Positions 13,631-63,544 of a DNA stretch of 64,000 bases are shown here, piece after piece (the first letter of the stretch is position 1; each line of letters starts with the position of its first letter). Made by a program: the position numbers and the translations under genes. The notes beneath the pieces were generated by a model. That model had not been told where the DNA came from and did not search any database. It worked only from the letters and a program-made list of their open reading frames with translations. The DNA comes from Thermodesulfovibrionia bacterium. Lineage in GTDB: Bacteria > Nitrospirota > Thermodesulfovibrionia > JACRGW01. Location: the NCBI GenBank assembly GCA_919902995.1, contig CAKKSD010000008.1, forward strand, positions 10,922 to 74,921, in the 5' to 3' direction.

Positions 13631-14654
13631 GATAGGTACAAGGGGAAGCAGGCTCGCCCTGTGGCAGGCAGAGTGGATTAAGTCGAGACTCGAGGAATAT
13701 CGTAAAGACATTAAGGTTAAACTTGTCAGAATTAAAACAACAGGTGATAAGATTCTCGATGTTCCTTTATCAAGGGTTGGAGGGAAAGGGCTCTTTGTAA
13801 AAGAGATCGAAGAGGGGCTTCTGAAGGATACTATCGATCTGGCTGTCCATAGTATGAAGGATCTTCCTACGGAATTGCCAGCCGGCCTTTATATCGGAGC
13901 CATAACAGAGAGGGAGGATCCGAGGGATGCCTTGATAATTAAAGTTCAAAGTTCAAAGTTCAAAGTTAAAAGTTTTAAAGACCTGCCAAAGGATGCTGTC
14001 GTTGGGACGAGCAGTCTCAGACGTCAATCTCAGCTGAAAGCTATTAGACCTGACCTTAATATAATAAATCTCAGAGGAAATCTCGATACAAGGATAAGGA
14101 AGCTTGTTGAGGGAAAGTTTGATGCTATAGTAGTCGCCTCAGCAGGGGTAAGGAGGCTTGGATTGGGAGACAGAATCACAGAATACCTTCCACCTGAGGT
14201 GAGCCTACCTGCAATCGGACAGGGTGCATTAGGTATTGAGATCAGGATGAATGATAAATTCACAGGAGAACTTGTTGGTTTCCTTAATCATGAAGAAACA
14301 TCCCTCTGTGTTAAAGCGGAAAGGGCCTTTCTTAAAAGGCTCGAGGGAGGGTGTCAGGTACCGATTGCGGCGTATGCGAGAATACGCAGTCAGGAGTCAT
14401 CAGTCTTCAGTCATCAGTCAAAAAAGATATCTGAGAAAAACAATTATGGACGGAGGACAGAGGACAATGGACTGATTGTTATGGATGGCCTTGTAGGAAG
14501 CGTGAGCGGTGACAGGATTGTGAGGGGACATATCGAAGGTAAAACCTGGGAATCAGAGACTATTGGGGTCAAGCTTGCAGAAGATCTCCTGTCGAGAGGG
14601 GGACGGGAAATACTCAATGAGATCTATGGAAAGAGTGAATCTTTAAAGGTTTGA
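13614..14654 (+). CDS. hemC: hydroxymethylbilane synthase (porphobilinogen deaminase)
   Basis: KIGTRGSRLALWQA, GGKGLFVKE and VGTSSLRRQ motifs. Contains two in-frame heptamer-repeat insertions (13941-13980 and 14391-14424). Confidence 0.9.
   Translation: MERIIKIGTRGSRLALWQAEWIKSRLEEYRKDIKVKLVRIKTTGDKILDVPLSRVGGKGLFVKEIEEGLLKDTIDLAVHSMKDLPTELPAGLYIGAITEREDPRDALIIKVQSSKFKVKSFKDLPKDAVVGTSSLRRQSQLKAIRPDLNIINLRGNLDTRIRKLVEGKFDAIVVASAGVRRLGLGDRITEYLPPEVSLPAIGQGALGIEIRMNDKFTGELVGFLNHEETSLCVKAERAFLKRLEGGCQVPIAAYARIRSQESSVFSHQSKKISEKNNYGRRTEDNGLIVMDGLVGSVSGDRIVRGHIEGKTWESETIGVKLAEDLLSRGGREILNEIYGKSESLKV
13941..13980. repeat. tandem heptanucleotide repeat (aaagttc)n inside hemC, in frame
   Basis: aaagttcaaagttcaaagttcaaagttaaaagttttaaag encodes KVQSSKFKVKSFK. 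Confidence 0.7.
14391..14424. repeat. tandem heptanucleotide repeat (tcagtca)n inside hemC, in frame
   Basis: cagtcaggagtcatcagtcttcagtcatcagtca encodes QSQESSVFSHQS, an insertion relative to typical HemC. Confidence 0.65.
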
Positions 14655-14657
14655 ATT

Positions 14658-15584
14658 ATGGTATACAAAGAAGAATTAGAAGAAAAGGATATAGATTCGC
14701 TCGATGTAATAGAAGGTGAAACTTCATTAATACCCTATGATACCATCGGGCATTATCTTGCTGAGATCAGGAAGTATCCCTTTCTCTCTAAGGAAGATGA
14801 ATTCAGGCTGGCGGTGGATTATAAGGAGAAAAAGGATATGGATGCCCTTATCAAACTTATCCTCTCTAACCTGAGGGTGGTTGTATCTATAGCCTTTGAA
14901 TATAAAGATACGCATCTCAACCTTTCAGACCTTATTCAGGAAGGGAACATAGGACTGATGCAGTCCCTGAAGAAATTTGACCCTTACAGAGGTGTCCGCC
15001 TTTATACCTATGCCTCCTGGTGGATCAGGGCATATATCCTCCGTTATATCATCAATAACTGGAGACTTGTCAAAATCGGTACAACCGAATCCCAGAGGAA
15101 ACTTTTCTATAACCTTATGAAGGAAAAACAGCGTTTAGAGGCACAGGGTCTCGAATCTTCCCCGAAACTTCTTGCAGAGAAGTTGCAGGTTAAAGAGAAG
15201 GATGTGATCGAGATGTCTGAACGTCTGGGCAACTGGGAGTTATCTCTTGACCAGCCGGTATATGAAGGTTCAGAGGAGACCTTACTCGGTCATATAATCC
15301 CTGGTGGTATAAATGTTGAAGAAATACTGGAAGAAAAAGAATTAAAAAACCTCTTCGTGGAAAAATTGAAGGAATTCTCAAAGACATTGAATAAAAGAGA
15401 CCTTGAGATACTTCAGAGAAGGATACTCTCCACAAACCCTGAAACCCTTGATGATATAGGCAAGAGGAACAGGATTTCAAAAGAACGTGTTCGTCAGATT
15501 GAGAAGAAGATAGTTCAAAGAATTAAAGAATTTATGAAAAAGGAGATAAAGGACTTTGATATTATAAAAGATGGGCGGCCCTGA
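14658..15584 (+). CDS. RNA polymerase sigma-70 family factor, RpoH-like (heat-shock sigma)
   Basis: Regions 2 to 4 are present (DLIQEGNIGLMQSLKKFD, ASWWIRAYI) with an RpoH-box-like SQRKLFYNLMK. The adjacent divergent hsp20 supports a heat-shock role. Confidence 0.65.
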   Translation: MVYKEELEEKDIDSLDVIEGETSLIPYDTIGHYLAEIRKYPFLSKEDEFRLAVDYKEKKDMDALIKLILSNLRVVVSIAFEYKDTHLNLSDLIQEGNIGLMQSLKKFDPYRGVRLYTYASWWIRAYILRYIINNWRLVKIGTTESQRKLFYNLMKEKQRLEAQGLESSPKLLAEKLQVKEKDVIEMSERLGNWELSLDQPVYEGSEETLLGHIIPGGINVEEILEEKELKNLFVEKLKEFSKTLNKRDLEILQRRILSTNPETLDDIGKRNRISKERVRQIEKKIVQRIKEFMKKEIKDFDIIKDGRP

Positions 15585-15594
15585 AGGGCCGCCC
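15573..15594. terminator. GC-rich hairpin gggcggccctgaagggccgccc, probable bidirectional terminator between the rpoH-like gene and hsp20
   Basis: Perfect 9-bp stem. On the minus strand it is followed by a T-rich run. Confidence 0.5.
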
Positions 15595-15604
15595 TCCTCT
15601 CCCA

Positions 15605-16060
15605 TCAGGATTTTACCTCAATAGGTATCGCCTTTGGCTTTATTTCTTCCTTCTTTGGAAGATCAATCTTAAGAACACCTCTATCGTAGGTTGCCTTCAC
15701 CTTGTCAACCTCGACTGTCGAAGGAAGACTAAAGGTCCTGCAAAAACTTCCATATACCCTTTCTACTCTCTGATAATTCTCCTTTTTATCTTCCCCTTCA
15801 AGTTTCCTCTCTCCCTTAATAGTCAAGGTATTATTCTCAATCTTGAGATCTATATCCTTCAGGTCCATTTCTGGGAGTTCTGCCTTTATTAATAACCTTT
15901 CTGAATCCTCGTAGATATCAACAGCAGGTACCCAAGACCATATTTCACCATGGACCTCAGAGATAGAGGGCCTGAAGAAGGTCTCATGGAAGAGCCTATC
16001 GATTTGATCCCTCAGGGGAAGTACCTCTTTAAAAGGTTCCCATCTCATAAGTTTCATCAT
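15605..16060 (-). CDS. Hsp20/alpha-crystallin family small heat-shock protein
   Basis: Alpha-crystallin domain (VDIYEDSERLLIKAELPEMDLKDIDLKIENNTLTIKGERK...GSFCRTFSLP). The ATG at 16058-16060 has an SD ggaggtg. The track ORF extends upstream artefactually. Confidence 0.8.
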   Translation of the reverse strand: MMKLMRWEPFKEVLPLRDQIDRLFHETFFRPSISEVHGEIWSWVPAVDIYEDSERLLIKAELPEMDLKDIDLKIENNTLTIKGERKLEGEDKKENYQRVERVYGSFCRTFSLPSTVEVDKVKATYDRGVLKIDLPKKEEIKPKAIPIEVKS

Positions 16061-16182
16061 ATTCACCTCCTTCACTTTTAATTTCTGGTTATAATTTAAC
16101 CATTGTTTTTTAGAAGTCAAGGATTGCATAGTAAAAACTTCTTTACCCAAAAAACCTCCTGGTGGTAATATATATATTTATC

Positions 16183-18723
16183 ATGAAGGATAGTCTAATC
16201 ATCAAGGGGGCAAGAGAGCATAATCTCAAGAATATTAATCTTGAGATCCCGAGAAACAAATTAGTTGTAATAACAGGATTATCTGGTTCCGGAAAATCCT
16301 CCCTTAGCTTTGACACAATATATGCTGAAGGTCAAAGGAGATATGTCGAGAGTCTCTCTGCATACGCCAGACAGTTCCTCGAACAGATGGATAAGCCTGA
16401 TGTCGATTCCATCGAAGGTCTCTCTCCTGCTATCTCTATCGAACAGAGGACAACCGCAAAGAATCCACGTTCCACCGTAGGGACTGTGACTGAAATATAT
16501 GATTATATGAGGCTCCTTTTCTCAAAAATAGGCTACCCCTATTGTTACAACTGCGGTAGAGAAATCAGATCTCAGACAGTCCAGCAGATGGTTGATTCGG
16601 TATTATTGCTCTCTGCTGGTACAAGATTCCAGGTCCTCGCTCCTGTTGTTAGAGGAAGGAAAGGGGAATATAAAAAGGAACTCCTCGAGATGAGAAGGAT
16701 GGGATACAGTAAGGCAAGGATCGATGGGAAGATCACGGACCTCTCAGATGATATAACACTGAATAAGAATAAGAGGCATACAATAGAAATAATTATTGAT
16801 CGCTTAATCGTCAAGGAAGGTATAGAAAAACGGATTGCAGACTCCATTGAGATTGCTATAAGGCTTTCAAAGGGAATAGTCATTATAAACGAGCTGGATA
16901 AAGGAAGAGACATCCTTTACAGTGAGAAACTTGCATGTCTTTATTGTGGAATAAGTTATTCAGAAATAACTCCAAGAACCTTTTCCTTCAATAGCCCCCA
17001 TGGTGCCTGTCCGGATTGTGGGGGCTTAGGTATTGAGAAGGTCAGAGGTATTGAAGACGAGGATGAGCTTACAGGGAACCTTACCTGCCAATCCTGTGGC
17101 GGTAGTAGATTAAAGAGGGAGAGCCTCTTTATAAAGATTGGGGGGTTATCAATAGCAGAGATTTCTCAGATGTCTGCAAAGAGAACACTCAGTTTCTTAA
17201 ACAATCTCACACTTTCAGATAAAGAGTCTTTCATAGCTCAGAGGATACTTAAAGAGATAAGGGAGAGGCTCGGATTCTTGGTGAATGTAGGGCTTGATTA
17301 TCTCACACTCGACAGATCAGCTGCTACCCTCTCAGCAGGTGAGGCGCAGAGGATAAGACTTTCCACACAGATAGGTTCTTCCCTGACAGGTGTACTCTAT
17401 ATCCTCGATGAACCGAGTATCGGACTCCATCAGAGGGATAACAGAAGGCTCCTTGACTCCCTTTGCAGGCTCAGGGATCTGGGGAACACTGTCATAATTG
17501 TTGAGCATGACGAAGAGACTATGAGAAGGGCTGATTACCTTATAGATATTGGTCCTGGTGCAGGTATACATGGTGGAGGGGTTGTGGCACAGGGAAGTAT
17601 TGAAAGCATAATAAACACTGAAATGTCCCTGACAGGTATGTATCTCAAGGGAGAACTTTCAATCCCTGTACCAGAAAGGAGGAGGAAACCAAAAGGATTT
17701 TTGAGGATAATTGGCCCGAGAGAGAATAACCTTAAGGGAATAGATATTGGTATCCCTATAGGAATCTTAACCTGTGTCACAGGGGTCTCAGGGTCAGGGA
17801 AGTCAACCCTTGTCTTTGATATCCTCTATAAGTCCCTGGCTAAGATTTTATACCATTCACCAGAAAGGCCTGGAAAGCATAAGAGAATAGATGGCATGGA
17901 ACTTATAGATAAGGTTCTGGATATTGACCAGTCTCCGATAGGAAGGACACCGAGGTCAAATCCTGCCACCTATACAGGACTCTTTACCTATATAAGAGAA
18001 ATTTTCTCACATCTCCCAGAGGCGAGGATAAGAGGTTATAAACCAGGAAGATTCAGCTTTAATATTAAGGGAGGTCGTTGCGAGGCCTGCAAAGGAGACG
18101 GATCAATAAAGATAGCTATGCATTTCCTTCCAGATGTCTATGTCACATGCGATCAATGTAAGGGGAAGAGATATAACAGGGAGACCCTCGATATAAGGTA
18201 CAAAGGGAAAAATATCGCGGAGGTTTTGGAAATGACTGTGGAAGAGGCATTGATCTTCTTAGAGAATATACCACATATAAGAGAAAAACTTGATACCCTT
18301 AACGGTATCGGACTTGGCTATATAACACTGGGTCAGTCTGCCACTACATTATCAGGTGGAGAAGCACAGAGGGTGAAGCTCTCCAAAGAGCTTTCCAAGA
18401 GGGAAACAGGCAAGACACTCTATATCCTCGATGAACCTACAACAGGTCTCCATTTTGCTGATATACAGAAGCTCCTCGATGTCCTTAACCGTCTCGTTGA
18501 TACAGGGAATACAGTTGTGGTCATAGAGCATAATCTTGATGTAATAAAGACTGCAGACCATATAATAGACCTTGGTCCAGAGGGAGGAGATGATGGGGGA
18601 TGGGTTGTGGCTACCGGAACACCAGAAGAAGTATCAGGGATAGCCAATTCATATACAGGGCAGTTTCTTAAAAGGGTTCTTGGAGGGAAGATCGATCGTG
18701 AGAAGGTATTTGTCCATGCATAG
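16183..18723 (+). CDS. uvrA: excinuclease ABC subunit A
   Basis: Two ABC ATPase modules ([20 protein letters not shown]) and zinc-finger Cys clusters. The N-terminus [18 protein letters not shown] is typical of UvrA. Confidence 0.9.
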
Positions 18724-18741
18724 GAGAAAATGTTCGGATAA

Positions 18742-18830
18742 ATCAGAGATTGCTTCGCCCCTGACTGGATCAGAGGCTCGCAACGACACCACAATATCAA
18801 GGTTTGTCATTGCGAGTGAAACGAAGCAAT
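18742..18830. repeat. intergenic hairpin element (agattgcttcg ... cgaagcaatct with internal gtcattgcgag arms)
   Basis: Terminal 11-bp inverted repeats. Lies between uvrA and apbE and generates spurious ORFs. Confidence 0.4.
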
Positions 18831-18874
18831 CTTATTCTCCAGAGTTTTACAGAAATTTTATCACTAAAAAATAT

Positions 18875-19858
18875 TTGATAGGATATATCAGTCTTATCAC
18901 AATCCTTCTACTCCTCTCCTGCGCCAAAGAACTCCCTATCTTTAAAAAGACTAAATTCCTTATGGATACAGTGGTAACTATTACTGCTGTTGGACCAAAA
19001 GAAGAGGTTGAGAAGGCGATAGATGCAACATTCTCAGAGATAGAAAGACTCGAATCCCTTATGTCAGGTTTTAGAGAAGGGAACGATGTGGACAGGATAA
19101 ACAGGTCTGCTGGGATAAATCCAGTTAAAGTGGATAGGGATGTCCTAATTGTTATAACCAAGGCGATAGAAATCTCAGAGATGACCGGCGGTGCCTTCGA
19201 TATCACGATAGGCCCTCTCAGTAGTCTCTGGGGATTTGGGGTTAAAGAAAATTATATTCCTGCAAGGGATGATATTAAAAAGGCCCTTTCTCTTGTTGAC
19301 TATAGAAAGTTACATGTAAATGTACAAAAATCTGAGGTCTTACTTAAGGAGAAAGGCATGAAAATAGATTTGGGTGGAATAGCGAAGGGTTATGCAGCAG
19401 ATAAGGGAGTTGAGGTCCTCAAAGGAGAAGGAATAAAGGCAGGGATAGTGGCTGTGGCAGGTGATATAAGGGTCTTCGGAAAAAGGCCTGATGGCAAACC
19501 CTGGCATATTGGCATAAAACATCCGAGGGAAAAGGATAAAGTCCTTACTACGATTGACCTCGAGGATAGTTCTATATCAACATCCGGGGATTATGAGAGA
19601 TTTTTCGTAAAGGATGGAATCAGATACCACCATATCTTCGATCCTAAAAATGGGCTTCCTGCTCCAAATTGTCAGAGCGTTACAATAATATCAAAGGAAG
19701 GTATTCTTGTAGATGCCCTGGCAACAGCGGTTTTTGTTTTGGGACCAGAAAAGGGTATGGAGTTTATCGAGTCTAATAAATTAATCAAAGGGATAATCGT
19801 GGATTCAAGGGGAGAGGTTAAGATTTCCTCGGCACTCAGGAGGAAGGTTGGGCTTTAG
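18875..19858 (+). CDS. apbE: FAD:protein FMN transferase (ApbE family lipoprotein)
   Basis: Lipoprotein signal LITILLLLSC, then ApbE core (MDTVVTITAVG, IDLGGIAKGYAAD). Probable TTG start. The track ORF starts earlier inside a repeat. Confidence 0.7.
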   Translation: MIGYISLITILLLLSCAKELPIFKKTKFLMDTVVTITAVGPKEEVEKAIDATFSEIERLESLMSGFREGNDVDRINRSAGINPVKVDRDVLIVITKAIEISEMTGGAFDITIGPLSSLWGFGVKENYIPARDDIKKALSLVDYRKLHVNVQKSEVLLKEKGMKIDLGGIAKGYAADKGVEVLKGEGIKAGIVAVAGDIRVFGKRPDGKPWHIGIKHPREKDKVLTTIDLEDSSISTSGDYERFFVKDGIRYHHIFDPKNGLPAPNCQSVTIISKEGILVDALATAVFVLGPEKGMEFIESNKLIKGIIVDSRGEVKISSALRRKVGL

Positions 19859-20231
19859 GGATATTATAAAGGGAATGACTTTCTGGGATAAGGTTTTGAT
19901 ACTGTTACTTTCAGGAATAACAGTCTTAAGTTTCTTTGTCGTTAAAACAATCTTTCCTCAAGGTGCAGAGGCATCCATAGATGTAGAGGGAAGGAATATC
20001 GGCTCCTATTCCCTTGAAGAAAACAGGATACTCAAGATTAAAGGCCCCCTGGGGATAACAGAGATCGAAATCAAAAATGGTAAGGTAAGAGTTATTAAGG
20101 ACCCCTCTCGTTATAAGATTTGTATAAATCAGGGATGGATATCAAAATCTGGTGAGGCCCTTATATGTCTTCCAAGCAGGATAATTGTCTCTATTACGGG
20201 TGAGGGCAGGTACGATGCTATCAGCTGGTAG
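19848..20231 (+). CDS. NusG domain II-like protein (ApbE-associated)
   Basis: 127 aa with an N-terminal TM segment. Sits between ApbE and a Gx-transporter gene, as in many ApbE loci. Assigned by context and size. Confidence 0.35.
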   Translation: MGFRDIIKGMTFWDKVLILLLSGITVLSFFVVKTIFPQGAEASIDVEGRNIGSYSLEENRILKIKGPLGITEIEIKNGKVRVIKDPSRYKICINQGWISKSGEALICLPSRIIVSITGEGRYDAISW

Positions 20232-20235
20232 GAAA

Positions 20236-20760
20236 ATGGAACTGAGAGAGATGGTCTACCTCTCATTACTTTCAACATTCGCCATTGTGATTCATAGCCT
20301 TGAGATAGTTTTCCCTTCACCACTACCATGGCTGAGATTGGGGCTTGCGAATATAATTACACTTGTAACCCTCCTGCTCTTCGGTATTAAGGCAGGACTT
20401 TTTGTCACAACTATAAGGGTTCTTGTGGGTTCACTCATTACAGGCTCCTTTCTTAATCCAGGTTTTTTCCTGAGCCTTTCAGGTGGAGTGGTAAGCACAC
20501 TCGCTATGGGTCTTATGATCTCGTTATTCAGGAATGCCTTCAGCCCTATCGGCATAAGTCTCATCGGTGCATTCACACATAACCTTACCCAGATAGCTAT
20601 GGCATATATAATGATAGTAAAGCGAAAGGAGATCTTTCTTCTTACCCCTGTAATCCTGGGTTTTGCTATCATTACAGGGACCTTTAACGGGATTGCCTCT
20701 TCTCTTTTATCCGATCATCTTAGGGGTATAATAGGAATGAAGTCAGTGGGTAGGAGATAG
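20236..20760 (+). CDS. Gx transporter / heptaprenyl-diphosphate-synthase-component-I-like membrane protein
   Basis: Polytopic membrane protein with Gly-rich helices. Linked to ApbE and NusG-II. Start taken at MELREM. Confidence 0.4.
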   Translation: MELREMVYLSLLSTFAIVIHSLEIVFPSPLPWLRLGLANIITLVTLLLFGIKAGLFVTTIRVLVGSLITGSFLNPGFFLSLSGGVVSTLAMGLMISLFRNAFSPIGISLIGAFTHNLTQIAMAYIMIVKRKEIFLLTPVILGFAIITGTFNGIASSLLSDHLRGIIGMKSVGRR

Positions 20761-20767
20761 AAGGGAG

Positions 20768-22333: not shown

Positions 22334-22373
22334 GGCATATTATAACATCAGGACAATGATTTTTTCACATATG

Positions 22374-22934: not shown

Positions 22935-23043
22935 CTATTCTCAGTTCTTAAACAAGATTACTGTTCTCTGAAATAATCAAGTGTTGACATTTTACTTGAT
23001 GGTATGTTGGATAAAAGAGGTGCGAGAGGCAAAGCGTCTCTGT

Positions 23044-23409
23044 TCAATCGATAGGAAGACGCCTCCGGCGAATCCGAGTTTTCTCAATGACAACAATGGA
23101 ATTTGGCAACTCCTCTTCTGAAATCGTTTCGAGCGTTCGTTTTAAACGTTCTACAGATTCTTGTTCGCTATAATTTCCACCTCGAAAGAGTATTAACCCT
23201 GGACCTTCGGACTGCAACAAAGCCAGCAGTCGGGGATAATCTAAATCAGCCGTGATTACTACCCGCTTCTCATTTCGAGCATGCTCTAAGATTGTTGTAT
23301 CAGCGGCTCGATTTAATCCCGCATCCGTGGCATGAACAGCGTCATGACCTTGCCCCACAAGCCAGACAGCCAAATCTGGTGACAAAGGCATGTCGATGAG
23401 AAACTTCAT
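23044..23409 (-). CDS. DUF5615-family PIN-like toxin
   Basis: MKFLIDMPLSPDLAVWLVGQGHDAVHA...ADLDY. GC-rich relative to surroundings. Overlaps the DUF433 gene. Confidence 0.5.
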   Translation of the reverse strand: MKFLIDMPLSPDLAVWLVGQGHDAVHATDAGLNRAADTTILEHARNEKRVVITADLDYPRLLALLQSEGPGLILFRGGNYSEQESVERLKRTLETISEEELPNSIVVIEKTRIRRRRLPID

Positions 23410-52070: not shown

Positions 52071-52145
52071 GAGTAGTCTCTCAAGACTCTTCCTTTTGAA
52101 ATTTTCGTTTTTAAATCGTTGCTGACCTATTTGAGATACAACCAG

Positions 52146-52355: not shown

Positions 52356-52806
52356 TAGGCTTATAGCCCATCCTTAAATTGATACTATTAATCACTCTCC
52401 GCACGGTTATATTCACCATATGCCTGTAATTCCAGGAGACAATGAAATCAACTTCATGGTATACGCCGATTGCAATATGTCTGGCATCATTGCGATACTT
52501 AGCAGGAATAACCTCATCATTTACATAGACGTCTGATAACTCAATACATTCCTCGGTCTCTTCAAGTATCTTTAATCCCGCTTCAGTAATCGCACTCTTT
52601 AATTTTTCCTGTATTTCATGGGGAGCCTTCAAAATCTCCTCTAAGGTAAGAAAAGAAATAAATCCTTCATAAAGTCCATCTTTGATTAATCTGATAAGGC
52701 TCTCTGCTTTTTTTATTCTTTCAGCATCCGCTATATCAAAAAGCCCACCAAGAACTGATGTATCTATATACAGACTTGCCTTTTTCATCCATCCTTCTTT
52801 TCTCAT
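52303..52806 (-). CDS. PIN-domain protein (VapC-like)
   Basis: ASLYIDTSVLGG...YRNDARHIAIGVYHEVDFIVSWN shows PIN acidic residues. Confidence 0.5.
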   Translation of the reverse strand: MRKEGWMKKASLYIDTSVLGGLFDIADAERIKKAESLIRLIKDGLYEGFISFLTLEEILKAPHEIQEKLKSAITEAGLKILEETEECIELSDVYVNDEVIPAKYRNDARHIAIGVYHEVDFIVSWNYRHMVNITVRRVINSINLRMGYKPIEIISPEEVVEYEEMEI

Positions 52807-52949
52807 CTCTTCTTATCTCTACGACATGAGATAAGAGGGTAAAGTATTTTTGAATTAGTATACCCCAAAATAAGATAAGGTAAAAGCAAAAAAATCAGAA
52901 TAATAATATCGAATATGAGAAATAAAGGAGTTTGACATGCTCAGGACTT

Positions 52950-53925: not shown

Positions 53926-53939
53926 ATGTTCTGAAAATT

Positions 53940-55595: not shown

Positions 55596-55625
55596 GATAA
55601 TTTTAAAGTTGGTTAGTTATCGAGA

Positions 55626-55696
55626 TGTCATCCCGAATCTGTTTCAGGATCTCTGTTATTGAAAAAGAGCTGCTGAAACGGGTTCAGCATGACAAG
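55626..55696. repeat. hairpin repeat family, copy 2 (gtcatcccgaatctgtttcaggatc...gctgaaacgggttcagcatgacaa)
   Basis: Homologous to 26330-26394. Lies in the RNase J leader. Confidence 0.55.
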
Positions 55697-55710
55697 GCAC
55701 ATTTCCTATT

Positions 55711-56634: not shown

Positions 56635-57854
56635 CTCTCAGGCAGAATCCTGTGGAATACGTCATCCAGCACATCAAGAAGGGCATCGATTTCTTTTTCT
56701 GTGATTATAAGTGGAGGCATAAAACGGAGGACATTACCCTCAGTACAGTTAATCAGAAACCCCCTTTCGAGACAGTCTGTCACAATATTTGAACATTCGG
56801 TATTAAGTTCCATCCCTATGAGAAGCCCAATCCCTCTCACCTCATTGATAAACGAATAGTCTTCTTTTAGTCTTTCAAGACCTTTTTTAAAATAATCTCC
56901 CATCCTCCTCGAATTCTCAAGAACAAACCCATCCTCAAGAATAGCCTCAACAGCTGCATTTGCAGCCGCACAGGCGATGGGGTTCCCACCAAAGGTTGAT
57001 GCATGGGAACCAGGCACAAAAGCCCTGGCAAATTTTTCCTTAGATAAGGTTGCCCCAATAGCCACGCCACCTCCCAGCGCCTTGGCTAGGGTCATTATAT
57101 CAGGCTCTATTGTATAATGTTCGTAGGCAAAAAGTTTCCCTGTCCTCCCCATGCCTGTCTGGACCTCGTCAAGGATAAGGATAAGTTTTTTTTCATCACA
57201 TATCTCCCTGAGACCTTTGAGGTAGCCTTCCTTAGAGATCCTCACCCCGCTCTCACCCTGTATTGGTTCTACCATTACCGCACAGGTTCTGTCTGTAATT
57301 GTATTCCTTAGTGCATCGAGGTCATTGAACGGGACATACCTGAATCCGATAAGAAGTGGCTCAAACCCCTTCTGAAATTTCTCCTGACCTGTAGCGGAAA
57401 GTGTAGCAAGGGTTCTCCCGTGGAAGGAACCCAATGTGGTTATAATCTCATATCTTTCATTTCCAAAGTTTTCTTTAGAATATTTCCTTGCAAGTTTTAT
57501 AGCTGCCTCATTAGCCTCTGCCCCACTATTAGAAAAAAAGACCTTGTCAGCAAAGGAATGCTCAACGAGTATCTTGGCGAGTCTTATCTGAGGTTCTATA
57601 TGATAGAGATTCGAGATATGGATAAGTCTCTGTGCCTGTTTCTGTAAGGCAACAACTACCTTTGGATGACAGTGTCCAAGATTATTTACTGCAATACCGC
57701 TCACAAAATCAATATATTCTTTGCCATGAGAGTCGTAGACCTTTACCCCTCTTCCTTTCACGATGACAATGGGGAAACGCCTATATGTATCCATAAGATA
57801 GGTCTTTGATTCCTCGAGCATTTTCTGAGTTGTCATAGATACGATTAATACCAT
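56631..57854 (-). CDS. argD: acetylornithine aminotransferase (class III PLP aminotransferase)
   Basis: Class III aminotransferase motifs (GxxxBACA-like, DEVQTGMGRTG). Operon with argF. Confidence 0.85.
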   Translation of the reverse strand: MVLIVSMTTQKMLEESKTYLMDTYRRFPIVIVKGRGVKVYDSHGKEYIDFVSGIAVNNLGHCHPKVVVALQKQAQRLIHISNLYHIEPQIRLAKILVEHSFADKVFFSNSGAEANEAAIKLARKYSKENFGNERYEIITTLGSFHGRTLATLSATGQEKFQKGFEPLLIGFRYVPFNDLDALRNTITDRTCAVMVEPIQGESGVRISKEGYLKGLREICDEKKLILILDEVQTGMGRTGKLFAYEHYTIEPDIMTLAKALGGGVAIGATLSKEKFARAFVPGSHASTFGGNPIACAAANAAVEAILEDGFVLENSRRMGDYFKKGLERLKEDYSFINEVRGIGLLIGMELNTECSNIVTDCLERGFLINCTEGNVLRFMPPLIITEKEIDALLDVLDDVFHRILPER

Positions 57855-57997
57855 ACTTAGGATTAAAAATCAAATTTTATTTAAAATCATCAATAACTCA
57901 TAGTGAGGCAGATTATAAAGAAAAAAGGAGTTGACAATATAGAGGGAGTCGCTTAATAATATGACCGCAAACCAAAGATATAAAGGAGGATAATAAC

Positions 57998-58813
57998 ATG
58001 GACTGGGGAATGAAAAACCGTATGGCACAGTTGATACAACCTGATGGTCGCGCCCTCTTTTTGCCTATAGATCATGGATATTTTCAGGGCCCTACAAGAA
58101 GACTGGAAGAACCAGGAAAAACTATTGAATCGCTTCTTCCTTACTGTGATGCCCTTTTTGTCACGAGGGGGGTATTACGCTCATCAATAGATCCAAACAA
58201 TACTAAACCGATTATTCTTAGGGTATCTGGCGGAACCAGTATGGTCGGTAAAGACCTGTCTGCTGAAGGTATCACAACCTCTATTGAAGAAGCGATCCGT
58301 CTTAATGTGTCTGCAATAGGTATCTCAATATTTGTGGGCAGTGATTATGAGCGTGAATCACTATTAAATCTGGCAAAGCTTGTTGATGAAGCCGAAAGGT
58401 ACGGGATACCTGTGATGGCAGTAACCGCTGTGGGGAAAGAACTTGAGAAAAGAAGTGCCCGTTACCTTGCTTTATGCTCTCGCATTGCTGCCGAATTGGG
58501 GGCACGTGTTGTAAAGACCTACTGGTGCGATGATGGCTTTGAGAAGGTGATCAGGGGTTGTCCAGTCCCGGTTGTTATGGCAGGTGGACCTCAGGTGGAC
58601 ACTGAGTTCGAAGTATTCAAGTTCGTCCATGATGGTATCCAGAAAGGGTCTATCGGTGTCAACTTAGGGAGAAACATCTGGCAGAATGATTTTCCTTTAG
58701 CGATGATTAAGGCGATCCGTGCTATTGTCCATGAAAATGCCACTCCCGAAGAGGCTAATGATATATTCAATAGCATAAAAGAGGATTCGAAGATTCAGAT
58801 GGCAAGGAAATAA
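57998..58813 (+). CDS. DhnA-type class I aldolase family protein (fructose-bisphosphate aldolase / ADH-synthase / LsrF-like)
   Basis: 271 aa, LFLPIDHGYFQGP N-terminus and the VVKTYW lysine region typical of the DhnA family. Confidence 0.55.
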   Translation: MDWGMKNRMAQLIQPDGRALFLPIDHGYFQGPTRRLEEPGKTIESLLPYCDALFVTRGVLRSSIDPNNTKPIILRVSGGTSMVGKDLSAEGITTSIEEAIRLNVSAIGISIFVGSDYERESLLNLAKLVDEAERYGIPVMAVTAVGKELEKRSARYLALCSRIAAELGARVVKTYWCDDGFEKVIRGCPVPVVMAGGPQVDTEFEVFKFVHDGIQKGSIGVNLGRNIWQNDFPLAMIKAIRAIVHENATPEEANDIFNSIKEDSKIQMARK

Positions 58814-58822
58814 AGATACCTA

Positions 58823-59851
58823 ATGCGAGTTGCTGTCTACTATAACAACCATGATATAAGGATAGAAGAGAGACCTGTACCAAAGATAGACAAAGGTGAG
58901 ATACTTATACGTATCGAGGCGAGTGGAATCTGCGGTAGTGATGTAATGGAGTGGTATCGCATTAAAAAGGCACCGCTTGTGCTCGGTCATGAGATCGCAG
59001 GTGAAATAGTAGCTGTAGGAGATGGAGTAACGCATTATAAGGTTGGCGATCGGGTCTCGGCAGCACATCATGTTCCCTGCAATATCTGTTATTACTGTCT
59101 TAAGGGTCATCATACCATTTGCGACACCCTCAGAAAAACGAATTTTGATCCAGGGGGTTTTGCTGAATATGTGCGCCTGCCATCAATAAACGTAGACCGG
59201 GGGGTTTTTCTTCTCCCTCATGAAGTATCTTATGAAGAGGCAACATTTATAGAACCACTTGCCTGTGTATTACGCGGGCAAAAAAAGGCAGGAATAGAAC
59301 CAGGCGAGAGTGTACTTGTCATTGGCAGCGGCATCTCAGGTCTGCTCCATATACAGCTTGCCTGTGCACTCGGGGCAGGTCTTATTGCAGCAACGGATAT
59401 CTCCGAATATAGACTGAACGCAGCAAAGAGATTTGGGGCAAACCTTGCCATACATGCAGAAGATGATGTACCCTCTCTCCTGAGGAAGGCAAACAATGGT
59501 CGTCTTGCAGACCTTGTAATAGTATGCACTGGTGCCACAAAGGCATTTATCCAGGCGCTTCAATCTGCGGAAAGAAATGGTACTGTCCTCTTTTTCGCAC
59601 CGACAGAGAATGGAGTTACCATACCGATATCAGTGAATGATCTTTTCTGGCGGAATGATATAACCCTTACCACCTCCTATGCAGGGAGTCCTTCAGACCA
59701 TATGGTGGCATTAGAACTTATTAAGTCACACCGTGTGAATGTGCTTGAGATGATTACTCACAGGCTTGGTCTTTCGGAAACTGGTACTGGTATTGGGCTT
59801 GTTGCCAACTCACGTGATTGCATAAAGGTAATTATCGAACCCAAGAGATAG
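58823..59851 (+). CDS. zinc-dependent medium-chain dehydrogenase (threonine/sorbitol dehydrogenase-like)
   Basis: GICGSDVMEWY, GHEIAGEIVAVGDGV, Cys-rich structural Zn site CNICYYC, Rossmann GSGISGL. Confidence 0.7.
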   Translation: MRVAVYYNNHDIRIEERPVPKIDKGEILIRIEASGICGSDVMEWYRIKKAPLVLGHEIAGEIVAVGDGVTHYKVGDRVSAAHHVPCNICYYCLKGHHTICDTLRKTNFDPGGFAEYVRLPSINVDRGVFLLPHEVSYEEATFIEPLACVLRGQKKAGIEPGESVLVIGSGISGLLHIQLACALGAGLIAATDISEYRLNAAKRFGANLAIHAEDDVPSLLRKANNGRLADLVIVCTGATKAFIQALQSAERNGTVLFFAPTENGVTIPISVNDLFWRNDITLTTSYAGSPSDHMVALELIKSHRVNVLEMITHRLGLSETGTGIGLVANSRDCIKVIIEPKR

Positions 59852-59951
59852 GCGGCGAAGAAGTTCTGATATCAGGGTAATTTTTCATAGGGCATAGGGT
59901 ATAATTAGATTCTTTAGTAAAGATTCTTCATGATTCTCAGTAAGGTTTACC

Positions 59952-59980
59952 TTGACAGGTTGGCATTTAATTGTTAAATT
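59952..59980 (+). promoter_or_regulatory. candidate sigma-70 promoter of the rpsU operon (TTGACA-17-TAAATT)
   Basis: cTTGACAggttggcatttaattgtTAAATT lies about 90 nt upstream of the rpsU ATG. Confidence 0.35.
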
Positions 59981-60071
59981 ATTGCAAACTTATTGATTAA
60001 TCCTGACTGTTATCTCTATGAGTTGCAGACAGGAAGGGTATAATAAAAATTATGGGAGGAGGCGAAAATGA

Positions 60072-60260
60072 ATGCCAGTTGTAAGGATAAAAGAGACCGA
60101 GTCCTTCGAAAACGCTCTCAGGAGATTCAAGAAACAGTGTGAAAGAGAGGGTGTACTGTCTGAGATAAAGAAGAGGGAGCACTATGAAAAACCCAGCGTC
60201 AGAAGGAAAAAGAAGGCCATAGCAGCACGTAAAAAGAGCATGAAGCGGGTAAGATTCTGA
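60072..60260 (+). CDS. rpsU: 30S ribosomal protein S21
   Basis: [42 protein letters not shown] is near-canonical S21. Confidence 0.9.
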
Positions 60261-60268
60261 GGTAGGGG

Positions 60269-60712
60269 ATGTCCCTGAAGGAGAGATTTTCCTCAGAACT
60301 CAAAGACTCACTGAAAGCCGGTGACAGGCTTAAGCTATCCACTATTCGCTTAATCATGGCATCCCTGAAGAATAGGGAGATAGAGAAAAGGGGTAGCCTA
60401 TCTGAAGAAGAAATAATCGATCTCCTGGTCTCACTTTCAAAGCAAAGAAAGGAATCAATAGAAGAGTTTAAGAAAGGTGGAAGACAGGATCTTGTTGATA
60501 AAGAGACTGAAGAACTCAAGATAATTGAGTCCTACTTGCCTCAGCAACTCACACCTGAGGAGATAAAGAAGATAATAGGCGAGACCATAACAGAAACCGG
60601 CGCATCAGGTTCTAAAGACATAGGAAAGGTGATGAAGGTTCTTATGCCCAAAGTGAAAGGCAGGGCAGATGGTAAGCTGGTGAATGAGATGGTAAAAGAA
60701 CTCCTTGGATAG
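60269..60712 (+). CDS. GatB/YqeY domain protein
   Basis: Conserved rpsU-downstream gene. KDIGKVMKVLMPKVKGRADGKLVNEMVKELL C-terminus. Confidence 0.75.
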   Translation: MSLKERFSSELKDSLKAGDRLKLSTIRLIMASLKNREIEKRGSLSEEEIIDLLVSLSKQRKESIEEFKKGGRQDLVDKETEELKIIESYLPQQLTPEEIKKIIGETITETGASGSKDIGKVMKVLMPKVKGRADGKLVNEMVKELLG

Positions 60713-60736
60713 AATCTAACTTATAAGGAAAGAACT

Positions 60737-61708
60737 TTGAAGCTTAAGGATTTATATGCCTTTATTGTCCAAAGAGGGATTGAGGTCGATCCAAGAGGAA
60801 AAGATGTAGTAGAAAAGGATCTCCAGAGGAAAAAGGAGAACTTTGATACCCTGAAGCCCGATGATCCTGATTCCTTGTCTTTTGATAAAGAAAGTTTCAC
60901 AAACCCTTATCCTGATACCAGAATCCTTTTTGGTAATCCTGAGCTTGAGGTAAGGAACTTTCTCATCGGAATCGACATCGAAGTCGGTGAGATACTGTTG
61001 GCAGAGAGACTACTCTCTAAGGGGAAAAAGATTGACCTTGTCATTTCCCATCATCCAGAAGGAAGGGCCTATGCCAACCTCTACGAAGTTATGCATATGC
61101 AGGCAGATATTCTAAACAAATTCGGTGTACCCATTACTGTTGCCGATGACCTCCTCGATAAGAGGATAAAGGAGGTCGAAAGAAAACTGATGCCTGTAAA
61201 TCATACAAGGACTGTAGATGCCGCTAAACTTCTCGGTATCCCCCTCCTCTGTATGCATACCCCTTCAGATAATTTTGTTGCTAATCATCTCCAGAAACTC
61301 TTCGATGAAAGGAAACCTGATACTCTGAAAGATATACTTAATATCCTTAGAGAGATTCCTGAATATCAAGATGCTATCAGGGAGACCGCAGGCCCGAAGA
61401 TCACCCTTGGTTCTAAGGAAAAAAGGGCAGGCAAGGTATTCGTCGATATGACAGGTGGGACAGAAGGATCCAAGGATATCTTCGAAAGGATCAGCCAGGC
61501 AGGGGTTGGCACCATTGTTGCGATGCACCTAAGCGAAGACCACAGAAAAGAAGCCGAAAAACACCATGTAAACGTAGTGATAGCAGGCCACATATCAAGT
61601 GACAATCTCGGTATGAATCTCCTTCTCGATGGGATCGAAAAGGCAGAACCCTCTGGTCTGAGTGTTCTCTGTTGCTCAGGGTTTAAGAGATTTAAAAGAA
61701 TTCAATAA
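60737..61708 (+). CDS. Nif3-like dinuclear metal-centre protein (YqfO/DUF34 family), tentative
   Basis: VISHHP and AGH metal-ligand-like motifs, size and position in the MMS operon. Family call not certain. Confidence 0.4.
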   Translation: MKLKDLYAFIVQRGIEVDPRGKDVVEKDLQRKKENFDTLKPDDPDSLSFDKESFTNPYPDTRILFGNPELEVRNFLIGIDIEVGEILLAERLLSKGKKIDLVISHHPEGRAYANLYEVMHMQADILNKFGVPITVADDLLDKRIKEVERKLMPVNHTRTVDAAKLLGIPLLCMHTPSDNFVANHLQKLFDERKPDTLKDILNILREIPEYQDAIRETAGPKITLGSKEKRAGKVFVDMTGGTEGSKDIFERISQAGVGTIVAMHLSEDHRKEAEKHHVNVVIAGHISSDNLGMNLLLDGIEKAEPSGLSVLCCSGFKRFKRIQ

Positions 61709-61732
61709 AATGTCTACTGCGAACCGTCAACG

Positions 61733-63544
61733 GTGAACCGTATGGTTGAGGGCTATATCCAGGAAGAGATCATCGACCGTATCCGTAATAGCATCGATAT
61801 AGTAGAGGTCCTTTCTGACTATCTGCCTCTCAAAAAGTCTGGCCAGAACTATAAAGGGTTATGTCCCTTTCATTCAGAAAAAACACCTTCCTTCATCGTA
61901 AGTCCATCCAAGCAGCTTTACCACTGCTTTGGATGTGGATCAGGAGGAGATGTATTCAACTTTCTTGTCCAATATGAAAACCTTTCTTTTCCTGAGACCG
62001 TACGGATTCTGGCAAAAAAGGCAGGAATAAAGATAGAAGTTAAAACCAGAGATCCAAGACTAAAGACAGAGAAAGAGTCTCTACTGAAAGTAAACAAAAC
62101 GGCTGAAGAATATTTCCATAAGATCCTTATTGGCCCTCAAGGAAAGGTTACAAGGGAATACCTATTTAAAAGAGGGATTAAAGATAAGACCATAGAAGAT
62201 TTTAAACTAGGCTTTTCTCTTCCTGCATGGGGAGGACTCCTTACTACTATGGGAGAGCGAGGCTATTCACCAGAAATTTTACAGAAGACTGGTCTTATAA
62301 TACCGAGGGAAGATAGAAAAGGCTATTATGATAGATTCAGGGGAAGGATAATCTTTCCTATCTACAATATAGAAGGCGATGTTATTGGATTTGGAGGTAG
62401 AGTTCTGGATGATACCCTGCCGAAGTATCTCAATTCTCCTGAGACCCTTATTTACAGAAAAGGTGAAAACCTCTATGCCCTAAACAAGGCAAAAGATTAT
62501 ATAAGAAAAGAACCCCTTATCCTTGTGGAAGGCTATATGGATGTTATAGCGTTACATCAAGCAGGCATCACGAATACAGCAGCCACACTCGGGACTGCTC
62601 TCACAAAAGGTCATCTTAAAGCGATTACAAGGTTTACAAAAAAGGTGGTAATTATATTCGATGCTGATCCAGCAGGTAAGAAGGCAGCCTCTATGGGTCT
62701 TGATATCTTTGTTGAGGGGGGCATAGATGTGAGGATTGTTTCGCTTCCTTCAGGGGATGACCCTGACAGTTTCATGATGAGGGAGGGAAAAGATAAGTTC
62801 ATGAATCTACTTCACGGAGCATCAAACCTTATCGATTTCAGTTTAAAGCAGATATTAGATCAAGACACAGGATTTTGGACGGTTAAGAACCAAGAGTTAA
62901 GTGAAAAAATCAGTAAAGTGGGTGAGGCCCTTGTTATAATATCCAAAATCCCCAATAATATAGAAAGGGGCTATTATCTTAAAAGATTATCCGAAAAGAC
63001 AGGTATAGAAGAGACCTTCTTGTTAGAAGAATTCAGAAGAATGAAGGTACAAAAAAGGGTCCACAGTCCACAGTCCACAGTCCACAGTCAGCGGTTAAGA
63101 CCAAAGGCAGAAGAAATCCTGATCCATCTTATGTTGAAGGACAAAGATATAGCAAACGAAATACTTAATGCACTGAACCCCGAGGATATTACTTATCCAC
63201 CTTTCAGAACTATAGCGAAGGCAATAGAGACATCACTCGTAAAGTTTAAAGAGATAAGACCTGAAAAGTTTATTAATAATGAAAAGGATCCAGAGGCTTT
63301 TAATCTTTTCTCTGAGCTATCAATAAAAGAAATGGAATACGAAGATGAGAGAAAAGTGATGGAAGACTGCCTCCTTCACATAAACAATCGTGAGAAAGAT
63401 AAGAGGCTTTCAGAACTCCAATTCAAGATCAAGGAGGCTGAAATTAAAGGAACAGAAGAAGAAGTTCTTAACCTTCTGTCAGAAAAACAGAGATTAGCAA
63501 AAAGCGTGTCAATGACCAGCAGGGAAGTTAAAATGAAAGGTTGA
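61733..63544 (+). CDS. dnaG: DNA primase
   Basis: Zinc ribbon CPFHSEKTPSF...CFGCG, RNA-polymerase domain, TOPRIM EGYMDVIAL...DADPAG. Carries an in-frame heptamer repeat at 63059-63090. Confidence 0.9.
   Translation: MNRMVEGYIQEEIIDRIRNSIDIVEVLSDYLPLKKSGQNYKGLCPFHSEKTPSFIVSPSKQLYHCFGCGSGGDVFNFLVQYENLSFPETVRILAKKAGIKIEVKTRDPRLKTEKESLLKVNKTAEEYFHKILIGPQGKVTREYLFKRGIKDKTIEDFKLGFSLPAWGGLLTTMGERGYSPEILQKTGLIIPREDRKGYYDRFRGRIIFPIYNIEGDVIGFGGRVLDDTLPKYLNSPETLIYRKGENLYALNKAKDYIRKEPLILVEGYMDVIALHQAGITNTAATLGTALTKGHLKAITRFTKKVVIIFDADPAGKKAASMGLDIFVEGGIDVRIVSLPSGDDPDSFMMREGKDKFMNLLHGASNLIDFSLKQILDQDTGFWTVKNQELSEKISKVGEALVIISKIPNNIERGYYLKRLSEKTGIEETFLLEEFRRMKVQKRVHSPQSTVHSQRLRPKAEEILIHLMLKDKDIANEILNALNPEDITYPPFRTIAKAIETSLVKFKEIRPEKFINNEKDPEAFNLFSELSIKEMEYEDERKVMEDCLLHINNREKDKRLSELQFKIKEAEIKGTEEEVLNLLSEKQRLAKSVSMTSREVKMKG
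63059..63090. repeat. tandem heptanucleotide repeat (gtccaca)n inside dnaG, in frame
   Basis: gtccacagtccacagtccacagtccacagtca encodes HSPQSTVHSQ in the inter-domain linker. Confidence 0.7.

Follow-up and report, generated by a model that had tools for sequence, protein, structure and literature searches.

Tandem repeats with a seven-nucleotide unit lie in frame inside hemC and dnaG, two essential genes, in the 64-kb stretch of a Thermodesulfovibrionia genome analyzed here (the window), raising the question of how such repeats arise in these genes and how they persist in them. As the preliminary description of this DNA had pointed out, the gain or loss of a single unit would shift the reading frame, since seven is not divisible by three.

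Heptanucleotide arrays in hemC and dnaG

Tandem arrays were called with Tandem Repeats Finder (TRF), and the sequence and its reading frames were also inspected directly. Three arrays on the forward strand stand out: array 1, with 4.9 copies of AAAGTTC at positions 13941-13974, or to 13980 with a degenerate last unit (TRF score 61, 96% matches); array 2, with 4.9 imperfect copies of CAGTCAT at 14387-14420 (score 47, 81% matches); and array 4, with 4.4 perfect copies of GTCCACA at 63059-63089 (score 62, 100% matches). These scores make them heptanucleotide long SSRs, that is, head-to-tail runs of 1-11 nt units longer than expected by chance. In a scan of periods 4-15 across the window, long exact runs appeared at period 7 alone (20 matched bases in array 1 and 24 in array 4). 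Tolerant lag scans returned the same three regions at lag 7, nothing comparable at lags 4-6, 8 and 10-12, and no array in the window outside hemC and dnaG. TRF, exact-run and lag scans thus agree that the in-frame heptamer repeats noted earlier in both genes are real, and the coordinates first given for them were correct to about 4-6 nt. A further array missing from that first list, array 3, consists of 2.7 weak and possibly decayed copies of GGACAGA at 14448-14466 on the same strand (score 31), encoding GRRTEDN. It was picked up by the lag-7 scan only at the loosest threshold, where shuffles average 1.4 hits, and on its own it is therefore not above chance. All arrays are in frame within intact genes, and the four units of the window all differ from one another.

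We give next to no credence to the notion that chance matches or assembly artefacts account for the arrays. Their shortness, and the chance-level standing of array 3, would fit it, but exact runs of such length at period 7 only, the recovery of identical arrays in independent assemblies from ENA, JGI, NCBI and Logan, and the presence of orthologous arrays in dozens of relatives all argue against it, and for arrays 1, 2 and 4 it is refuted.

The comparison of close relatives reveals constant copy number. Copy number is identical in the 5 hemC alleles of a cluster of at least 90% identity, all of them encoding 346 aa, and in 9 dnaG alleles at 94-100% identity, which differ by point substitutions only. 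That slippage can be seen in such data is illustrated by a positive control, a 12-nt repeat in recA present three times in one and twice in the other of two otherwise identical genes. The repeat-number variation for which an allele comparison had been proposed is hence absent from these 5 hemC and 9 dnaG alleles, and we conclude that the arrays are fixed rather than hypervariable. The preliminary description had taken identical, fixed copy numbers in all relatives as evidence against its reading, and this is what the close relatives show. The same constancy indicates that they are not phase-variation switches. Contingency loci toggling hemC and dnaG by frameshift would be compatible with a unit length indivisible by three and with 4-5 copies, a number within the slippage-prone SSR range, yet they are a very improbable account of arrays that lie in housekeeping genes, at mid-gene positions (residues 110-122 and 258-269 of 346 in hemC; 443-453 of 603 in dnaG) rather than 5'-proximally, and whose total length is conserved even in distant relatives. 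The SSR contingency loci of Haemophilus influenzae (PMC2651432) likewise have, within an ORF, a unit whose length three does not divide, but they are copy-number polymorphic and 5'-proximal and belong to surface or virulence genes.

Array positions in the host proteins

The hemC gene (13614..14654, forward strand; 346 aa from a TTG start) encodes hydroxymethylbilane synthase (TIGR00212, E = 4e-104; PDB 1ah5, E = 7e-92), contains three of the arrays and retains every residue invariant among 33 relatives. Its first array site (13941..13980) corresponds to array 1 and encodes KVQSSKFKVKSFK (residues 110-122) at the start of domain 2, in a loop of 36 aa against a canonical 30 aa, a net gain of 6 aa. 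AF2 pLDDT is 63 over residues 111-120 and falls below 50 at 113-115. In outgroups without an array, the Ser-Phe-Lys codons of this site read TCG TTC AAG or AGT TTC AAA, containing the unit GTTCAAR, and the unit of the window, in the register GTTCAAA, equals these conserved codons, which points to local duplication. Across genomes, the different units of this site (AAAGTTC, AGAGTTC, AGGGGTC, AGAAGTC and AAATTTC) keep the same register, and two of these arrays are 100% perfect in HemC proteins that are only ~62-75% identical. The length of site 1 is the same in 91 of 112 relatives and is retained even in three clade members (L001-L003) in which the array has decayed. No relatives differ there by exactly 3 units (7 aa); palindrome-insert carriers aside, non-modal lengths are mostly +4 to +6 and +9 aa.

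The second site of hemC (14385..14468, forward strand) is a 28-aa insert between two beta strands of domain 3 that holds arrays 2 and 3 and appears as a gap in the alignment with E. coli HemC (query 258-285). AF2 pLDDT is ~30 at residues 261-283, flanked by strands at 251-258 and 287-295. Array 2 encodes RSQESSVFSHQS (residues 258-269), and not the peptide beginning QSQESS that was first reported for it. It is identical in two relatives (L081 and L175), and the orthologous 'SQES...' arrays of relatives are built from AGTCAAG and AGTCAGG. Across 120 relatives the insert ranges from 8 to 62 aa; the array site is absent in the 8-aa class, and one relative (L088) carries up to three adjoining arrays, each with a different unit. 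Relatives also possess a second short element, a GC-rich palindrome inserted in frame at both hemC sites; it is absent from the window.

The dnaG gene (61733..63544, forward strand) encodes a DNA primase of 603 aa from a GTG start, or 600 aa if the ATG of relatives is taken as the start, and matches TIGR01391 over residues 9-422 (E = 3.5e-134). A search for close alleles returned seven at 94-100% identity. Array 4 (63059..63089) falls beyond this match, in the linker that joins the primase core to the C-terminal helicase-binding domain; its translation is VHSPQSTVHSQ (residues 443-453). The linker is of equal length in 70%-identical relatives and 2-4 residues longer in 45%-identical ones, so that an earlier reading of this array as an insertion finds no net gain in length against the former. 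Two relatives (L171 and L172) have array 4 at unchanged copy number with one substitution, and two others (L173 and L174) have different units, CCAGACT and xxGTTCA, in a linker of identical length. The placement of the arrays in loops or linkers therefore stands as first described, with a surface loop (AF2 pLDDT <50 at hemC residues 113-115), a hairpin insert (<50 at 261-283) and an interdomain linker as the three locations.

Heptamer arrays across a Nitrospirota lineage

We compared 199 kb around hemC and dnaG from Thermodesulfovibrionales-like Nitrospirota with 2.2 Mb of control sequence from other bacteria. Period-7 arrays per 100 kb numbered 13.1 in the clade and 0.78 in the controls at a TRF score of at least 40, and 7.05 and 0.18, respectively, at a score of at least 50, the clade densities being biased upward because the sample is centered on hemC and dnaG. 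With these two genes set aside, 14 arrays are left in ~190 kb of clade sequence. Period 7 accounts for 26 of the 54 clade arrays scoring at least 40. All 26 are inside ORFs of 150 aa or more, as against 4 of 17 in the controls, and their host genes include hemC, dnaG, an rluD-like gene, cobN, a uroporphyrinogen methylase/synthase fusion, topA and a DUF2162 gene. In-gene heptamer runs are hence a habit of a whole Nitrospirota lineage, and not, as initially suggested, of one genome. Their location is indeed unusual, both against our controls and against literature reporting heptamer arrays as mostly intergenic (PMC4692102, PMC6344855).

The clade arrays are uniform in size (3.4-5.1 copies at a score of at least 40, with none longer among 50 arrays), and their units contain no sense-strand stops. 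TCA is present on the sense strand in 19 of 26 units against 17% expected, an enrichment for which selection accounts only partly. In one relative (L090), two arrays run in the 'wrong' orientation and the TGA codons that they would create are exactly replaced (by TAT and TTA). Units are more alike within an array (identity 0.77-0.90) than between genomes at the same position (mean 0.66). One unit may also recur at non-orthologous sites of a single genome, in both orientations, as in L090 (three times), L088 (twice) and L084 (twice), where a 21-kb locus holds 2-3 unrelated sites with a shared unit.

Such sharing leaves room for a second explanation, in which a dedicated mechanism writes or inserts preformed modules of ~30-35 nt (4-5 heptamers) at many sites and genes keep the in-frame survivors. 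A mobile or templated element of very small size could act in this way, as could ectopic conversion among arrays, and the process would be the same in kind as that behind the cyanobacterial STRR arrays. We regard it as a possible but clearly less probable account. It would accommodate the appearance of one unit at unrelated sites in both orientations, including a TGA-creating one later mutated away, as well as the narrow array size, the enrichment of units for TCA/TGA, the adjacent different-unit arrays at hemC site 2 in L088 with the 8-62 aa range of that site, the in-frame entry of the GC-rich palindrome at both hemC sites in relatives, and the occurrence, in the cyanobacterium Gloeotrichia echinulata, of AGTCAAG-type arrays that are much longer and found at several loci. 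Against it, the site-1 unit of hemC corresponds to local conserved codons and every genome keeps its array in register with these, indicating that it arose in place; the four units of the window are all different; the analysis turned up neither a candidate enzyme nor target-site duplications nor defined element ends; selection against long arrays, prone as they are to frameshifts, offers an explanation of the size cap; and unit sharing rests on few loci. The broader proposition that such modules form a class of tiny mobile or templated DNA common to Thermodesulfovibrionales-like Nitrospirota and heterocystous cyanobacteria is more doubtful still. If true, permissive loops of essential proteins would be colonized and the same sites repeatedly rewritten, which would explain why the period is conserved although units change, why array size is sharply capped, why unrelated genes share units in both orientations, and the TCA/TGA bias.

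A third explanation, which we consider improbable, is selection for the periodic sequence as such, either because a lineage-specific factor binds it as DNA or RNA, a role of the sort proposed for the TAACTGA repeats of Beggiatoaceae, or because it provides a flexible peptide spacer. Consistent with it, the 7-nt period is kept at orthologous sites in ~62-75% identical proteins while the flanking loop changes, copy number is uniform at ~4-5, and TCA is enriched in units. Unit sequence, however, varies between relatives and between sites, leaving no common recognition motif; arrays have decayed at kept length in L001-L003, and site 2 is missing from the 8-aa class; the encoded peptides are predicted to be disordered; and a function at the peptide level cannot produce a 7-nt period. 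The DNA has no predicted structure either: the arrays contain no hairpin, inverted repeats are missing from them and from their surroundings, AAAGTTC, CAGTCAT and GTCCACA lack a G-tract, and minimum free energies are 0 to -0.8 kcal/mol, no better than those of shuffles.

Origin of the arrays and relation to known repeats

The reading we favor, with a probability of roughly 0.6, is that the arrays are fixed, translated, near-neutral passengers, products of slippage or template switching that are filtered by selection and resemble the cyanobacterial STRR. Replication slippage or transient template switching in a 7-nt register would duplicate a local 7-mer, and the same process would later homogenize neighboring units. 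Within genes, selection would keep arrays whose net length is a multiple of three, whose unit is stop-free in all three sense frames, and which are placed in disordered loops or linkers. After an array has become fixed in an essential gene, gaining or losing one or two units would cause a lethal frameshift, and the array would consequently be inherited at constant length; its unit sequence may then drift and be re-homogenized at that length, with occasional exchange by short-patch recombination. Selection against frameshift-prone long arrays can account for the size cap. Several observations sit less easily with this scheme: homogenization without length change is awkward for simple slippage, and no relatives differ at site 1 by exactly 3 units; local seeding does not predict one unit at non-orthologous sites of a genome; the distribution of copy numbers breaks off sharply at 5.1; selection explains the TCA enrichment only in part; and the window is free of arrays beyond hemC and dnaG. 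Of the processes raised in the preliminary description, slippage or insertion filtered by the reading frame thus remains the best explanation, stripped of its genome-specificity, and a short mobile motif is countered by the derivation of the site-1 unit from local conserved codons and favored by the recurrence of units at unrelated sites in relatives.

One resemblance is to the STRR (short tandemly repeated repetitive) heptamers reportedly described by Mazel and colleagues in 1990 in Calothrix, Nostoc and Anabaena; STRR are also mentioned in PMC4692102. Both are heptamer arrays abundant in one lineage and have units of similar flavor (xGTCAxx, ACTGxxx); the AGTCAAG arrays of Gloeotrichia echinulata, and the sharing of units within one genome in the relatives studied here, extend the likeness. 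STRR, however, comprise few unit families, each recurring at many places in a cyanobacterial genome, mainly between genes and often as long arrays, whereas the window holds four different units in short arrays, all in frame in genes, in a host of the phylum Nitrospirota. The Rickettsia palindromic elements (RPE), said to have been described by Ogata and colleagues in 2000 as dispersed palindromes of 100-150 bp, offer another parallel. Together with REP/REPIN-type elements (PMC3116915), they exemplify short selfish DNA whose survival in protein-coding genes requires that it keep the frame and fall in a permissive surface region. The GC-rich palindrome that relatives carry in hemC belongs to this type; the heptamer arrays, unlike RPE, are direct repeats of ~30 nt without inverted repeats, formed at site 1 from local sequence, and the units in the window differ between sites instead of representing dispersed copies of one consensus element.

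Prokaryotic heptanucleotide long SSRs also form head-to-tail arrays and are far commoner than those of other non-triplet periods. As relayed in PMC4679880, Mrazek et al. (2007) found heptamers to be the most abundant class of long SSR in prokaryotes and proposed slippage related to the polymerase footprint; the SPADE survey describes the function of heptamer arrays as unknown (PMC6344855). These SSRs are described as mostly intergenic and depleted in coding sequence, in agreement with our controls, whereas the arrays reported here lie in conserved genes in 26 of 26 cases, occupy orthologous sites, are capped at ~5 copies and are invariant in close strains. The TAACTGA direct repeats of marine Beggiatoaceae, cyanobacteria and Bacteroidetes, for which a regulatory role has been proposed (PMC4679880), come in sets of 2-6 heptamers and have a unit containing TGA/TCA, and their reverse complement, TCAGTTA, is one base from the TCAGTCA of the window; they have a single fixed unit mostly just upstream of start codons, in contrast to varied units translated mid-gene. 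The G-quadruplex heptamers GGGAATC and GGGGAYT of Xanthomonas and Nostoc (PMC4692102) share a preferred copy number of ~4, but the present arrays lack G-tracts and predicted structure.

That heptamers are the most abundant long prokaryotic repeats, with a cause stated as unexplained in surveys (PMC6344855, and PMC4679880 in what it relays of Mrazek et al. 2007), gives this lineage its interest. With its arrays placed within conserved essential genes, it constitutes a natural experiment: orthologous array sites can be aligned across an order, the reading frame is expected to restrain changes in copy number, and selection against stop codons can be read codon by codon, so that array generation, homogenization and loss can be separated. 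In the arrays, a repeat evolves in concert while its length stays the same, a pattern for which simple slippage has no ready explanation. For annotation, peptides resembling KVQSSKFKV, SQESRVKSQES and NPPIPPFTKGG in Nitrospirota proteins are to be read as passengers of DNA repeats, and not as functional motifs or assembly errors. Both hemC loops are highly permissive insertion sites, and one of them probably occupies the position at which the animal enzyme has its insert.

Heptanucleotide arrays in hemC and dnaG

Tandem Repeats Finder (TRF) and direct reading of the sequence both place in the window the three heptanucleotide arrays that a preliminary description had reported within hemC and dnaG: AAAGTTC in 4.9 copies at 13941-13974 (96% matches), a clearly imperfect CAGTCAT array of 4.9 copies at 14387-14420 (81% matches) and GTCCACA in 4.4 copies at 63059-63089 (100% matches). 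The finding is real, and it is wider than the window sequence alone makes visible. TRF also returned a weak array that had not been listed, consisting of 2.7 copies of GGACAGA at 14448-14466, which taken alone is at chance level. Scanning the window for periods of 4 to 15 nt yielded long exact periodic runs at period 7 only (20 and 24 matched bases), and tolerant lag scans led again to those period-7 regions, with nothing comparable at neighbouring lags. Short repeats of longer period (10-15 nt, about two tandem copies, TRF scores of 36-44) were also listed at 52790-52820, 52090-52116 and 62973-62999.

Both host genes, hemC (13614-14654; TIGR00212, E = 4e-104) and dnaG (61733-63544; TIGR01391, E = 3.5e-134), have intact open reading frames (ORFs) that run straight through the arrays, and the arrays do fall in loops or linkers of the proteins, as had been proposed. 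Relative to E. coli HemC, the AAAGTTC loop (hemC site 1, residues 110-122) is six residues longer, and the CAGTCAT and GGACAGA arrays (hemC site 2) sit within a 28-residue insert at residues 258-285. A confident AlphaFold2 model of HemC built from an alignment of 33 relatives (pTM 0.84) shows low confidence at precisely two segments, residues 113-115 and residues 261-283, the second of them lying between two predicted beta strands (251-258 and 287-295). Human HemC, in which the site-2 region is aligned in one stretch, presumably carries an insert of 29 residues at about this position. In DnaG the array encodes residues 443-453, C-terminal of the primase core (the family match ends at residue 422) and directly before the conserved RPKAEE(I/L)LIHLML that starts the C-terminal domain. 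Here the array adds no net length: relatives at 70% identity have a linker as long as that of the window, and in those at 45% identity it is 2-4 residues longer. Two readings of the period in terms of translation or protein structure were rejected. The units misfit the X XXY YYZ pattern of programmed -1 frameshift slippery heptamers and the array frame agrees with that of homologues; a coiled-coil heptad repeat would have a period of 21 nt, not 7 nt, and disorder is predicted for these segments.

Array length and unit turnover in relatives

Six genomes carry hemC site 1 arrays that are in register with the conserved flank and are built of different units. The window carries three copies of AAAGTTC followed by AAAGTTA and AAAGTTT, and the corresponding loci of relatives carry AGAGTTC/GGAGTTC (L175), AGAGTTC (L082), AGGGGTC (L084), AGAAGTC (L088, 100% over 4.9 copies) and AAATTTC (L090, 100% over 4.7 copies). 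Unit identity is 0.77-0.90 within an array, and between genomes at the same position it averages 0.66, with a minimum of 0.40. Because the HemC proteins are only ~62-75% identical, the perfect arrays at this site are not passively inherited relics. Site length is identical in 91 of the 112 relatives with a parsable site, and the encoded peptides (KVQSSKFKVQSF, QIQNSKFKIQNF, RISNFKFQISNF, RIHGSRFTVHGF, RSQKSEVRSQKF and others) correspond to different heptamers read in three frames. In some clade members (L001-L003) the periodicity has decayed and the six additional residues are retained. The dnaG linker follows the same pattern, with identical length and differing units in the window (GTCCACA), L171 and L172 (the window array with one substitution), L173 (CCAGACT) and L174 (a degenerate xxGTTCA).

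Identical copy number in relatives had been named as an outcome that would refute the preliminary reading. Close relatives do share one copy number, which rules out hypervariability and leaves the reality of the arrays and an origin by slippage unaffected. All five hemC alleles of the 90%-identity cluster encode 346 aa, point substitutions are the only array differences among nine dnaG alleles that are 94-100% identical, and the CAGTCAT array is identical in the window and L175. Slippage polymorphism is seen in these genomes where the unit length keeps the frame, and recA provides the positive control: at ~4585-4630 of L082 (recA N-terminus, minus strand) the 12-nt repeat AAAGAAAGAGAT is present three times, vs twice in the otherwise identical recA of L083, giving the repeat peptides KERDKERDKERD and KERDKERD, respectively.

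The window and L175 hemC genes are 96.5% identical, and 25 of their 36 differences fall inside a 73-nt patch (13931-14003) that comprises the AAAGTTC array and ~30 nt of its non-repeat 3' flank. This clustering suggests that recombination brought in a short patch from a divergent allele, or that mutations are locally concentrated in a hotspot. We rejected the pair as a case of clean concerted change between near-identical strains, since the non-repeat flank has been replaced too and recombination fits better than in-situ homogenisation. On this reading the patch shows one route of array replacement at unchanged length.

Period-7 arrays across the clade

The nearest homologues of the window proteins come from uncultured Nitrospirota and Thermodesulfovibrionales of groundwater, hot springs and sediments. 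MEK6689940.1 and MEK6689996.1, from the 90%-identity clusters of the window HemC and DnaG, are both encoded on one 99,787-nt contig of a 'Nitrospirota bacterium' metagenome-assembled genome. Exact-protein look-ups provided 199 kb of non-redundant DNA from relatives (the clade set), and HemC and DnaG scans of public genome and metagenome contigs provided a control set of 2.18 Mb from other bacteria, whose loci, among the matches listed, are only distantly related (at most 59% identity for HemC and 43% for DnaG). Period 7 is the dominant tandem-repeat period in the clade sequence. At a TRF score of at least 40, period-7 arrays occur at 13.1 per 100 kb in the clade and 0.78 in controls, and at a score of at least 50 at 7.05 and 0.18, the clade densities being inflated by the centring of clade loci on hemC and dnaG. 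Fourteen clade arrays lie outside these two genes, in an rluD-like gene, cobN, a uroporphyrinogen methylase/synthase fusion, topA and a DUF2162 gene; the Nitrospira loci examined carry no period-7 arrays.

All 26 clade arrays with a TRF score of at least 40 fall within ORFs of 150 aa or more, vs 4 of 17 in controls, with such ORFs covering 85% and 90% of bases, respectively. The control result agrees with the literature view of heptamer arrays as mainly intergenic (PMC4692102, PMC6344855). The clade has intergenic arrays too, as seen in a ~200-nt cluster of three weak period-7 arrays (ACGGATA, GTTCATG and AACAATG; 3.1-3.4 copies) between two called genes at 1580-1787 of L088.

The arrays qualify as heptanucleotide long simple sequence repeats (SSRs) and resemble the short tandemly repeated repetitive (STRR) heptamers of cyanobacteria, the TAACTGA repeats of Beggiatoaceae (PMC4679880) and the G-rich heptamers of Xanthomonas and Nostoc (PMC4692102). 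Unlike all of these, they lie in frame inside conserved housekeeping genes, recur at orthologous sites across an order and combine a capped, invariant copy number with varying units. The literature covered, which was an incomplete part, yielded no account of heptamer arrays inside Nitrospirota genes. Contingency loci were rejected on the lack of polymorphism and the mid-gene position, and hairpin or inverted-repeat explanations, including palindromes of the Rickettsia palindromic element (RPE) and REP type, on the lack of inverted repeats; G-quadruplex repeats were set aside for want of G-tracts.

Origin of the arrays

The spacing between the conserved DPRDA and GTSSLRR motifs that bracket hemC site 1 is 30 residues in the majority of bacteria, among them Nitrospira and one Thermodesulfovibrio, vs 36 in the clade. 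In outgroups that have no array, the Ser-Phe-Lys directly before DLP is encoded by TCG TTC AAG or AGT TTC AAA. These codons contain GTTCAAR, a rotated form of the window unit AAAGTTC, and the AAAGTTC array thus seems to have formed by tandem duplication of a local 7-mer on its upstream side. No other single observation argues as strongly for a local origin of the slippage type as this match between unit and local codons. Selection on the products is visible in the reading frame. No unit contains a sense-frame stop codon in any of the three frames, and where two AAGGCTG arrays of L090 are oriented so as to give an in-frame TGA, precisely the would-be TGA codon is altered (GGC TAT AGG in cobN and GGC TTA AGG in the DUF2162 gene). 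The most likely explanation, to which we assign a probability of about 0.6, is mundane in kind: slippage or template switching would generate arrays, and selection would then filter the products. What is unusual is the pattern, in which heptamer arrays are long-lived and in frame, their units change in concert while array length stays constant, and the counted arrays are exclusively coding.

Dispersal or templated insertion of the arrays, set against this local origin, appears rather unlikely, and several observations point towards it. Sense-strand TCA, equivalent to antisense TGA, is present in 19 of 26 units (window, L082-L090 and L173) vs 17% expected for stop-free sense 7-mers, at sites that are not all independent. 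The same unit recurs in both orientations at unrelated sites of one genome (three times in L090, twice each in L088 and L084); in L090, the unit class AAGGCTG/TCAGCCT occupies three different genes within less than 7 kb (12084-12117, 15169-15199 and 18481-18504). Copy number ranges from 2.1 to 5.1, and no array in the TRF set exceeds this maximum. HemC site 2 is modular, with up to three adjacent arrays of different units, and in many relatives, identified by peptide, it also holds a GC-rich palindrome translated as NPPIPPFTKGGRGGI. In L084 (10361-10411; also L085, L086 and L087 1037-1087) this palindrome, AATCCCCCC-ATA-CCCCCCTTTACTAAAGGGGGG-CGT-GGGGGGATT, is inserted in frame in hemC beside the heptamer array. 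It resembles mini-elements of the REP/RPE type and seems able to tolerate being translated; a search of the window did not find it.

Also consistent with dispersal, the cyanobacterium Gloeotrichia echinulata carries much longer AGTCAAG-type arrays at several loci. A peptide search with SQESRVK, in which embedded arrays of 11-12 aa are too short to reach E = 10 in the database used, gave no matches other than long arrays annotated as small ORFs, of which several come from this species. Five small 'hypothetical proteins' of G. echinulata GP01 (P0277, P0279, P0283, P0310 and P0311 in the search) are translated long AGTCAAG-type arrays with SQESRVK repeated; the gene calls, made across STRR-like arrays, are probably spurious.
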